Below are positions 48,325 to 51,076 of a DNA stretch of 64,000 nucleotides, piece by piece (position 1 is the stretch's first letter; the number at the start of each line of letters is the position of its first letter). Under the pieces are notes generated by a model. That model had not been told where the DNA came from, searched no databases, and worked only from the letters and a program-made list of their open reading frames with translations. The stretch spans positions 21,989 to 85,988 of the forward strand of contig JBDRHG010000014.1 in the NCBI GenBank assembly GCA_043817075.1, in the 5' to 3' direction. A program made the translations under genes and the position numbers. This stretch comes from an archaeon. Lineage in GTDB: Archaea; Nanobdellota; Nanobdellia; Woesearchaeales; JAADFO01.

Positions 48325-48677
48325 AAAAGGGTTTCTCGGGCCTAAGCAACTCCGTTGCTTTAGGGCCCCGGGAAAAACAGAAAAAAACAGAAAAGTAGGA
48401 CTACCATAACAATTCTTTCGCCAATTGGAAGCGAAATACGTTTCGCCTACGGCTCAAGCGTACAAAATAAAGAAAAGTAGGACTACCATAACAATTCTCT
48501 CGCCAATTGGAAGCGAAATACGTTTCGCCTACGGCTCAAGCGTACAAAATAAAGAAAAGTAGGACTACCGTGATTCTCACCGGCTTTTTAACAAACCCGA
48601 AGAAACCCTGTTTCTTGGGCCCAAGCAACTCCGTTGCTTTAGGGCCCCGGGAAAAACAGGAAAAAAAGAGAGAAAAG
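48325..48677. repeat. composite repeat block 3' of tRNA-Pro: GGGCC-hairpin module, two perfect-tandem 82-bp units, third partial unit plus second hairpin module
   Basis: 82-bp units at 48391-48472 and 48473-48554 differ at one base. Each starts AAAAGTAGGACTACC, mimicking the tRNA 3' end AAAAGTGGGGCTACC at 48673. The hairpin module GGGCC[CT]AAGCAACTCCGTTGCTTTAGGGCCCC occurs at 48338-48369 and 48617-48649. Confidence 0.85.
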
Positions 48678-48793
48678 TGGGGCTACCGTGATTTGAACAC
48701 GGGTCGCCAGCTGTCCGTCTCATCGTGGCCGCCTAGCGGCGGCATCTCGACGAACCCCGAGCTGGAGTGATAGCCAAGCTACACTATAGCCCC
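48678..48793 (-). tRNA. tRNA-Pro-like gene with ~42-nt intron in the anticodon loop (anticodon read as GGG; loop UCGGGGA)
   Basis: Acceptor GGGGCUA/UAGCCCC, T arm CCGUG-UUCAAAU-CACGG, anticodon stem CCAGC/GCUGG. The insert, about 48713-48754, folds into a relaxed bulge-helix-bulge. Isotype and exact splice sites were hand-derived, and C at position 33 is unusual. Confidence 0.7.
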
Positions 48794-50570: not shown

Positions 50571-50793
50571 GAAGAAAAGAAAATGGGGCGACCAGGACAA
50601 TTCTTTCGCCAATTGGAACCGATGTACGTTTCACCTAACGGCTCAAGCGTACAAAAAAAAAGCGACCGTGATGCCCACTGGCTTTTTAGCAAACCCGAAG
50701 AAACTATGTTTCTTGGGCCCAAGCAACTCCGTTGCTTTGGGAACCCGGAAAAAACAAAACTTAGCAAAACCACCACACATGAAGAAAAGAAAA
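50571..50793. repeat. copy of the tRNA-associated repeat element, bounded by a 28-bp duplication of the tRNA-Phe 3' end
   Basis: GAAGAAAAGAAAATGGGGCGACC[A/G]GGA occurs at 50571-50598 and again at 50781-50808, where it is the real tRNA 3' end. Between them are the same modules as at 48473-48660. Confidence 0.85.
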
Positions 50794-50924
50794 TGGGGCG
50801 ACCGGGATTTGAACCCGGGACACCTAGATATCTGATAATCATAGGCCCGCAGGCCCATTCATATCCAGGCAGTGACGCCGTGGCATCTTCAGTCTAGTGC
50901 TCTCCCAGACTGAGCTACCGCCCC
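50794..50924 (-). tRNA. tRNA-Phe(GAA) with 57-nt intron at 37/38
   Basis: GGGGCGG-UA-GCUC..GAGC-A-CUAGA-CUGAAGA ... UCUAG-GUGUC-CCGGG-UUCAAAU-CCCGG-UCGCCCC-A. The intron is about 50830-50886. CUGA (positions 32-35) pairs with UCAG in the intron, flanked by 3-nt bulges AGA and AUA (BHB). Confidence 0.85.
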
Positions 50925-50977
50925 AATTCCATGAGGAACAGAGTTCCTCGGGTGCCAGCAATTCATTGCTGAGCACT

Positions 50978-51025
50978 TTCGCCAATTGGAAGCGAAGTGG
51001 GTTTCGCTACGCTCAAGCCCACGAT
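50978..51025. repeat. third, diverged copy of the TTCGCCAATTGG... module, on the 5' side of tRNA-Phe
   Basis: TTCGCCAATTGGAAGCGAAGTGGGTTTCGCTACGCTCAAGCCCAC aligns with 48417-48466 and 50605-50655. Confidence 0.75.
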
Positions 51026-51076
51026 ATATAAAGGATGGCTGGACAGAAGTCCAGATCCATTTAAAAAGATGCCGGT

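Follow-up and report, generated by a model that had tools for sequence, protein, structure and literature searches.

Fragments of tRNA genes are known to lie beside integrated elements in archaea (PMC3293823). The tRNA-targeting elements of the tyrosine-integrase type (SSV-, pNOB8-type) leave the tRNA gene intact and are accompanied by a repeat that runs from the T-loop region through the tRNA 3' end, and the same is seen at the tRNA-Phe(GAA) gene described here. The insert behind this gene and the family to which it belongs differ from the tyrosine-integrase elements in having no integrase, no cargo and inserts of only 60-190 nt, and in being bracketed by site-specific repeats of unrelated sequence. 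These repeats are 10-80 nt long and are found also at tRNA 5' ends, at the ends of protein genes and at an rRNA tail.

Bacterial restriction-modification genes provide a second point of comparison, since some of them show "insertion with long target duplication", a phenomenon that likewise has no established mechanism (Nobusato et al. 2000; Furuta, Abe and Kobayashi 2010, PMC2853133). The direct duplications around such inserts are long and variable and often cover the 3' end of a gene, and no transposase or integrase is present (PMC2853133). The tRNA-Phe insert has a duplication, an empty site in the related genome G001 and no mobility gene, as in that description; its 27-nt duplication falls slightly below the 30-bp cut-off used in PMC2853133, and the class is a descriptive one rather than a mechanism. 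The restriction-modification cassettes are kilobase-sized, bacterial and without a shared end sequence, whereas the inserts described here carry a conserved 58-nt structured module at one end, are polar in their arrangement and reside in DPANN hosts.

Casposons are archaeal elements driven by Cas1, some of which are located at tRNA 3' ends, with a target duplication of 14-15 bp. They extend over kilobases and possess cas1, terminal inverted repeats and a duplication of fixed length; in contrast, the tRNA-Phe insert is an ORF-less stretch of 183 bp without inverted repeats, and its duplication measures 27 nt. Transposed bulge-helix-bulge tRNA introns of Thermoproteales were reportedly described by Fujishima and colleagues in 2010. 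As in those introns, related short sequences are found here at several positions in different tRNA genes; unlike them, the module described here can lie outside the tRNA, together with a duplicated gene end, and we know of no target duplications or protein-gene targets in the intron-transposition picture. At tRNA-Phe the module is situated 130-190 nt behind the tRNA, which is not the place of an archaeal bulge-helix-bulge tRNA intron. MITEs and SINEs are likewise short, non-coding, multi-copy and structured, and SINEs resemble the present family in that the 3' end is precise while the 5' end and the length of the duplications vary. Identity with MITEs was rejected because there are neither terminal inverted repeats nor a short fixed duplication (the range is 10-80 nt), and identity with SINEs was rejected on finding no link to reverse transcriptase and no constant A-tail.

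The insert behind tRNA-Phe and its bracketing repeat

The host is an uncultured Woesearchaeota (DPANN) archaeon, represented by an archaeal MAG of 1.52 Mb in 26 contigs that is 90% complete. The window, by which we mean the whole stretch of 64,000 nt that was analyzed, lies on contig C14. A direct repeat of 28 bp had been reported at tRNA-Phe in the initial annotation. The direct repeat is real, but its length is 27 nt, bases 50598 and 50808 being different. Its two copies (GAAGAAAAGAAAATGGGGCGACCAGGA distal to the tRNA and GAAGAAAAGAAAATGGGGCGACCGGGA proximal to it) are identical at 26/27 positions, and a search of the window allowing up to 3 mismatches returned these two matches only, with 0 expected from 100 shuffles. 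The proximal copy does hold the true 3' end of tRNA-Phe, as had been claimed, and consists of the last 14 nt of the tRNA and 13 nt of trailer.

Between the two copies, directly behind tRNA-Phe, lies a non-coding insert of 183 bp (50598-50780). The alignment proposed as a check on its collinearity with the stack behind tRNA-Pro was run and bore the claim out: 50598-50780 aligns to 48491-48680 with a mean column identity of 84% and two indels, of 9 and about 18 nt. Each of the parts that had been listed for the insert is present, namely the TTCGCCAATTGG module, a degraded T-arm piece and the CTTTTTAGCAAACCCGAAG...GGGCCCAAGCAAC hairpins. We also agree that the repeat is too long for an ordinary transposase duplication, that it brackets inserted DNA and that it includes the tRNA 3' end. 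The genes neighboring the insert encode TrkA, TrkH, a vWA protein, an OB-fold protein and a class II aminoacyl-tRNA synthetase. ARAGORN at default settings overlooked both tRNA genes of the window, tRNA-Pro and tRNA-Phe, because they contain introns of 42 and 57 nt, respectively. Rfam at gathering thresholds detected tRNA-Phe and not tRNA-Pro.

Reading along the minus strand, tRNA-Phe and its 13-nt trailer are followed by a filler, module B, a fossil T-arm piece, a run of nine T, module A and the orphan copy of the tRNA-Phe end, beyond which the original downstream flank resumes (Table 1). The orphan copy stands directly after module A, whose 3' end (..GAAUUG) abuts it. In this copy of module A, hairpin H1 reads GUACG CUUGAG..GUGAAAC GUAC, and the pseudoknot formed by helices H2 and H3 is partly decayed. 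T-rich spacers resembling the nine-T run precede most copies of module A. The fossil piece mixes Pro-like with Phe-like bases, a mixture that comes down to three bases. No ORF was found in the 183-bp insert, and its ends show no terminal inverted repeats, the only hairpins being internal. A search of the genome for the source of the 24-nt filler found none.

Table 1. Features of the tRNA-Phe and tRNA-Pro loci and further copies of module A in this genome. Positions are those of the window unless a contig is named; R1 is the covariance model of module A.
Feature	Position	Strand	Description
Second module A, GUGGG/CCCAC subfamily	50968-51023	-	R1, 70.7 bits; upstream of tRNA-Phe
tRNA-Phe(GAA)	50794-50924	-	Rfam RF00005, 53 bits; ARAGORN with introns; 57-60-nt intron after position 37
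Proximal repeat copy	50781-50807	-	functional tRNA-Phe 3' end 50794-50807 and present trailer 50781-50793
Filler, 24 nt	50757-50780	-	no second copy in genome
Module B	50682-50756	-	two hairpins: AAGAAAC..GUUUCUU and GGGCCCAAGCAAC..GUUGCUUUGGG
Fossil tRNA T-arm/acceptor piece	50662-50681	-	GCGACCGTGATGCCCACTGG on + strand; homologous to 48562-48590 in tRNA-Pro stack
Run of nine T (A on + strand)	50653-50661	-	directly 5' of module A
Module A	50595-50653	-	R1, 72.9 bits, E 5.5e-18 (whole genome); same sense as tRNA-Phe
Orphan (distal) tRNA-Phe end	50571-50597	-	trailer 50571-50583 and last 14 tRNA nt 50584-50597; one mismatch
tRNA-Pro(GGG)	48677-48793	-	ARAGORN with introns allowed; 42-nt intron
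tRNA-Pro paralogue, donor-type stack	48407-48676	-	two tandem units of orphan end and module A, fossil T-arm piece, module B, trailer
tRNA-Pro module A copies	48407-48464, 48489-48546	-	R1
Module A behind tRNA-Arg(GCG)	C26:7960-8181		tRNA, trailer, module, orphan own 3' end
Module A at tRNA-Val(CAC)	C7:40035-40300		one in front (fused to tRNA 5' end), one behind

This genome has three copies of module B, all of them at tRNA-Pro or tRNA-Phe, and a search of 150 other genomes of the order (E 0.001) found no further copy, apart from one borderline match of 30 nt. Because it is confined to two loci here and missing from those 150 genomes, module B was rejected as a separate mobile family. At tRNA-Pro it belongs to the native downstream region and is itself duplicated there. 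The junctions between fossil piece and module B and between module A and the T-run are identical at tRNA-Pro and tRNA-Phe, and module A of tRNA-Phe is closest to the tRNA-Pro copies (86-88%). The bracket around the tRNA-Phe insert is Phe-specific in both copies, trailer included, and young (26/27), and the fossil piece inside the insert is strongly diverged. We read module B as donor flank that was carried along. Judging from these sequence comparisons, the simplest reading is that a unit extending from a tRNA-Pro-type trailer to the exact 3' end of module A would have been copied behind tRNA-Phe, in which case about 125 nt (T-run, fossil T-arm piece and module B) would be donor flank copied together with module A.

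Fold, copies and distribution of module A

Module A comprises about 58 nt in the sense of tRNA-Phe and is made up of a hairpin of about 12 bp (H1) followed by two interleaved helices, H2 and H3, which together constitute an H-type pseudoknot. H1 contains a 5-bp outer stem, a bulged C, two U-A pairs, a tandem G-A/A-G, an inner stem of 2-3 bp and a small loop; the internal loop, CUUGAG...CGAAAC, is almost invariant among the copies. The covariance model R1 was built from seven copies and includes H1 and H2 only. In the R1 alignment of 51 matches, standard pairs occupy 90.7% of the cells and two-sided changes are seen at 17/20 pairs, values that were reached in 0/500 shuffles; slid controls gave 34-49%. 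H3, which is outside the model, is paired in 88% of the cells and shows two-sided changes at 5/5 pairs, one such exchange being A-U in 14 copies against G-C in 8. The fold of module A is thus under selection. The strand in the sense of the module is weakly favored by the counts of G-U against A-C (16 to 9), and the G-A tandem is present on this strand only; the copies located in tRNA introns, on the other hand, are all antisense. The tRNA-Phe copy has a weakened H2 and an unremarkable thermodynamic fold, with z-scores of -0.7 for the tRNA strand and -2.4 for its complement.

Rfam searches at gathering thresholds and with E up to 1 matched only tRNA, the other matches being far below the thresholds and off the module. 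The CUUGAG..CGAAAC loop has a hammerhead-like look; a hammerhead reading was dismissed, since the arms on either side form pairs with one another and covary. A reading of the hairpin as a bulge-helix-bulge or a classical k-turn was likewise discarded, the loop geometry being, by eye, a misfit.

Seven copies of module A are recognizable in this genome. Two are found behind tRNA-Pro, one behind and one in front of tRNA-Phe, and the others at tRNA-Arg and tRNA-Val. The orphan 3' ends that follow the modules at tRNA-Arg and tRNA-Val are duplicates of 24 and 28 nt, respectively. The copy in front of tRNA-Phe is located between that gene and a TATA-like sequence, TTTATATAT (51024-51032), and would be part of the 5' leader; no flanking repeat was found around it (best score only 7). 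Weak R1 matches (18-23 bits) were also observed at or near three contig ends (C7:57379-57589, C10:50968-51034 and C22:32-98), and these may represent another repeat, one that breaks the assembly.

Of 151 genomes sampled from the same order, 49 contain the module according to searches with R1, and the number of copies in a single genome reaches 13. When the hairpin pattern was compared with species-representative genomes, at least 118 stretches matched. Among the 80 that were listed, about half belong to MAGs assigned to Candidatus Woesearchaeota, Nanoarchaeota or Nanobdellota. The hairpin matches include the complete genome GW2011_AR15, and some carry the label Methanosarcinales; at least one of the latter is identical with a contig from a genome of this order. 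Bacterial matches form a minority, in about the number estimated for chance, and viral contigs gave six matches, to the hairpin alone. Our search of the literature found no description of the module. Module A belongs to a widespread and apparently undescribed family of small folded elements whose copies duplicate the ends of genes.

Other repeats were noted in the course of these searches. Genome G059 contains a second multi-copy repeat of about 110 nt (CTGCGTTTCAAAT...TTCTTTGTCTTG...) at loci L043, L100, L101, L104 and L099. This repeat, possibly an IS end or the end of a repeated gene, has module A at its end in four loci. Other small hairpin modules, such as GATAAGGGTGAAACCCTTATGTG and AAGTGCGGCGTGAAGCCGCAC, recur near tRNA genes (L013, L048, L056 and others), which suggests a wider set of mini-modules.

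Flanking repeats, polarity and empty sites

Flanking repeats were evaluated in 130 nt on each side of 61 copies, using as controls left and right flanks paired across different genomes. A direct repeat scoring above the 99th percentile of the controls was found around 31 of the 61 copies, copies in related genomes being non-independent observations. An independent set of 35 copies from named MAGs showed similar behavior. Across the family the repeats range from 10 to 80 nt and are unrelated in sequence from one site to another. The gene ends that are repeated include tRNA 3' ends with trailer, tRNA 5' ends with leader, the starts and stops of protein genes and a 23S rRNA trailer. Examples from protein genes are the first 19 nt of a phosphoesterase-like gene and the last 20-40 nt of several genes, stop codon included. 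In the 23S rRNA case (L171:2600-2830, minus strand) the module is just behind the 3' end of the gene and is accompanied by a perfect 71-nt repeat of the rRNA trailer, apparently the mark of a very recent insertion.

The arrangement of repeat and module has a consistent polarity. The right repeat begins 0-6 nt past the 3' end of the module, and a variable spacer of 0-125 nt, often T-rich, separates the left repeat from the module 5' end. A tRNA lies 5' of the module in 34 copies, 16 of them with the tRNA 3' end facing the module and 18 with the 5' end; a tRNA lies 3' of the module in 7 copies, none of which (0/7) has a repeat. Wherever a repeat-bearing copy was inspected, the complete gene stood on the 5' side of the module and the orphan fragment adjoined the module 3' end. 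The repeats mostly reach 15-18 nt into the tRNA and therefore begin in the T-loop or the D-arm. Bracketed inserts measure 60-190 nt, and no cargo was found between the repeats in the copies examined. Tandem arrays of repeat plus module are common, as at the tRNA-Pro locus of this genome and at L042, L046, L098, L107 and L110. Copies adjoining tRNAs number 46/94, a lower bound given that many tRNAs with introns escape ARAGORN. In G059, one young subfamily (83-98% identical) is found at sense-oriented 3' ends only, and the copies at 5' ends belong to other subfamilies.

Seven copies are located inside tRNA genes, four of which are tRNA-Gly(CCC), where they make up most of the intervening sequence; all of these genes are antisense to the module, and a repeat is present in 0/7. 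In relatives of the present genome the module accounts for the greater part of introns in tRNA-Gly(CCC), Thr, Pro and Leu genes, and also of a T-loop insert, the latter (L050) containing the module without any duplication. An anticodon-loop intron of tRNA-Gly(CCC) with an antisense module is shared by at least four genomes (L015 of G001, L037, L051 and L151) and may be an old, vertically kept home of the module family.

The initial annotation had proposed to look for the insert at orthologous tRNA-Phe loci. Genome G001, of the same genus, retains the order aminoacyl-tRNA synthetase, OB-fold protein and tRNA-Phe, with the two proteins 68% and 63% identical and the tRNA 85% identical. It has no module on either side of tRNA-Phe, that is, neither in the 198 nt available downstream nor in the upstream spacer. 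Nine further tRNA-Phe loci of the order similarly have no module. In G059 a young copy lies behind a tRNA; in the two remaining genomes of this genus the corresponding tRNA runs straight into its trailer, without module or second tRNA end, and the trailer of the orphan copy in G059 resembles the native one. Empty and filled sites thus exist at the level of the genus, not of the strain. A search of metagenome contigs for the exact tRNA-Phe pattern found no match. Relatives of the vWA protein in metagenomes were at most 58% identical (about 50% among the full-length matches) and had no adjoining tRNA and no module. Look-ups of the exact protein sequences of the OB-fold protein, the vWA protein and the neighbor of the 23S-tail copy returned no record.

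How the module may move

On balance, we take the 27-nt repeat to be a target duplication that arose when a 183-bp composite was inserted, with the module of about 58 nt as its active part. The active part would be the structured module A, and the last 27 nt of the target would have been duplicated during insertion behind tRNA-Phe.

As to how copies spread, we tentatively propose a copy-and-paste process that uses host recombination or replication template switching, an idea drawn from the layout of the copies. The donor unit would consist of a T-rich trailer, the module and the first bases of the tRNA fragment. The ends of such a unit would resemble the T-loop and trailer (or the leader and D-arm) of any other tRNA gene, in permuted order. 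Pairing of these ends with a new tRNA end, by "ends-in" recombination or a template switch, would insert the unit, and because the paired ends are permuted the stretch between them would be duplicated. Neither an integrase nor a reverse transcriptase would be required. Copying by host recombination would account for the polarity, for the precise 3' junction and for repeats that start in conserved tRNA loops, and it would also cover the T-rich spacers and the donor flank that is carried along. The restriction of the young G059 subfamily to one kind of target end fits it as well. Two observations stand against it: the strong conservation of the fold and of the internal loop needs another reason, and some targets are protein genes without tRNA-like homology.

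A broader statement of host-driven copying, which we offer as possible rather than probable, is that module A may be a selfish unit, a folded RNA or DNA of about 58 nt without an enzyme of its own. By means of tRNA-end features and of host recombination or repair, it would insert copies of itself into gene ends, be they of tRNA, rRNA or protein genes. Each landing would leave behind a duplicated gene end or, within a tRNA loop, a new tRNA intron.

Since host recombination leaves both the conservation of the fold and the protein targets unexplained, a trans-acting enzyme is a serious rival, albeit one that we think rather unlikely. The module would then be a non-autonomous element moved by a putative nuclease, transposase or recombinase acting in trans, and the repeat would be the target duplication of a staggered cut. 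Such an enzyme would recognize the hairpin loop, join the module 3' end to a tRNA loop or gene end and cut the other strand 10-80 nt away. A conserved internal loop and a covarying pseudoknot are to be expected of an end that binds a protein, and the precise 3' junction, the strict polarity and the clustering of repeat starts 15-18 nt inside tRNA ends are also in keeping with an enzyme. However, no candidate gene adjoins any of the copies looked at, and the length of the repeat varies five-fold within one young subfamily of a single genome, unlike the product of any known transposase. The variable spacers and the donor flank on the 5' side of the module likewise speak against it.

Movement through RNA appears highly unlikely. 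Here, a trailer or read-through transcript ending at the module would be reverse transcribed at a nick in a gene end, in a SINE-like, target-primed manner, and this would suit the variable-length duplications, the precise 3' end and the variable 5' extension with its donor flank. The A-rich stretches seen on the opposite strand beside many copies could be cited in the same sense, but these A/T runs are not constant and are mostly tRNA trailers. Moreover, this genome has no reverse transcriptase detectable as RVT_1 (PF00078). A reverse transcriptase was found in 7/49 genomes with the module as opposed to 26/102 without it, and in neither G059 (13 copies) nor G110 (100% complete), both of which are rich in copies.

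The initial annotation had interpreted the repeat as an attL/attR pair left by integrase-type recombination. On this account a tyrosine-integrase element, a virus or plasmid, would have entered tRNA-Phe and later been deleted to 183 bp, and the repeat does start at the T-loop, cover the tRNA 3' end and continue into the trailer, an extent seen with many tRNA-integrating elements. The interpretation did not hold up when the other copies were considered, and we see very little chance that it is correct. Elsewhere the module is bracketed by repeats of unrelated sequence, 10-80 nt long, derived from tRNA 5' ends, protein gene ends and the rRNA tail, and therefore no single att core explains them. 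No integrase or other recombinase is located in or near the insert, the single match to PF00589 (tyrosine recombinase) in the genome being on another contig (C26:1861-2322). Bracketed inserts are all under about 190 nt, and in the viral contigs all six matches were to the hairpin only.

Least probable of all is that nothing moved and that a local duplication, or gene conversion with the tRNA-Pro locus as donor, produced the insert by way of similar T-arms. In favor of this, the two loci lie on the same strand at a distance of 2.1 kb, can be aligned collinearly for about 270 nt (84%) and are the only places where module B is found. Against it, each of the 27-nt copies is specific to Phe, down to the 13 nt of trailer, an outcome that a tRNA-Pro donor would not give, and the same architecture is met again on other contigs of this genome, at tRNA-Arg and tRNA-Val, as well as in dozens of further genomes.

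It has long been asked how tRNA genes of archaea acquire introns, become split and give off fragments, and the usual suspects are integrase-bearing viruses and plasmids. Within one order, the module described here is seen inside tRNA introns, in front of tRNA genes and, accompanied by a duplicated gene end, downstream of tRNA, rRNA and protein genes. The question is testable, since there are both young copies and sites that are empty. The modules, together with the introns in which they sit, also cause standard tRNA finders to miss genes in DPANN genomes. The preferred reading, insertion of a composite with module A as its active part, points to a kind of long-target-duplication insertion that needs no transposase, integrase or reverse transcriptase. 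If module A is indeed a selfish unit that copies itself into gene ends, then archaeal tRNA introns and fragments of tRNA genes would have a working source in it.
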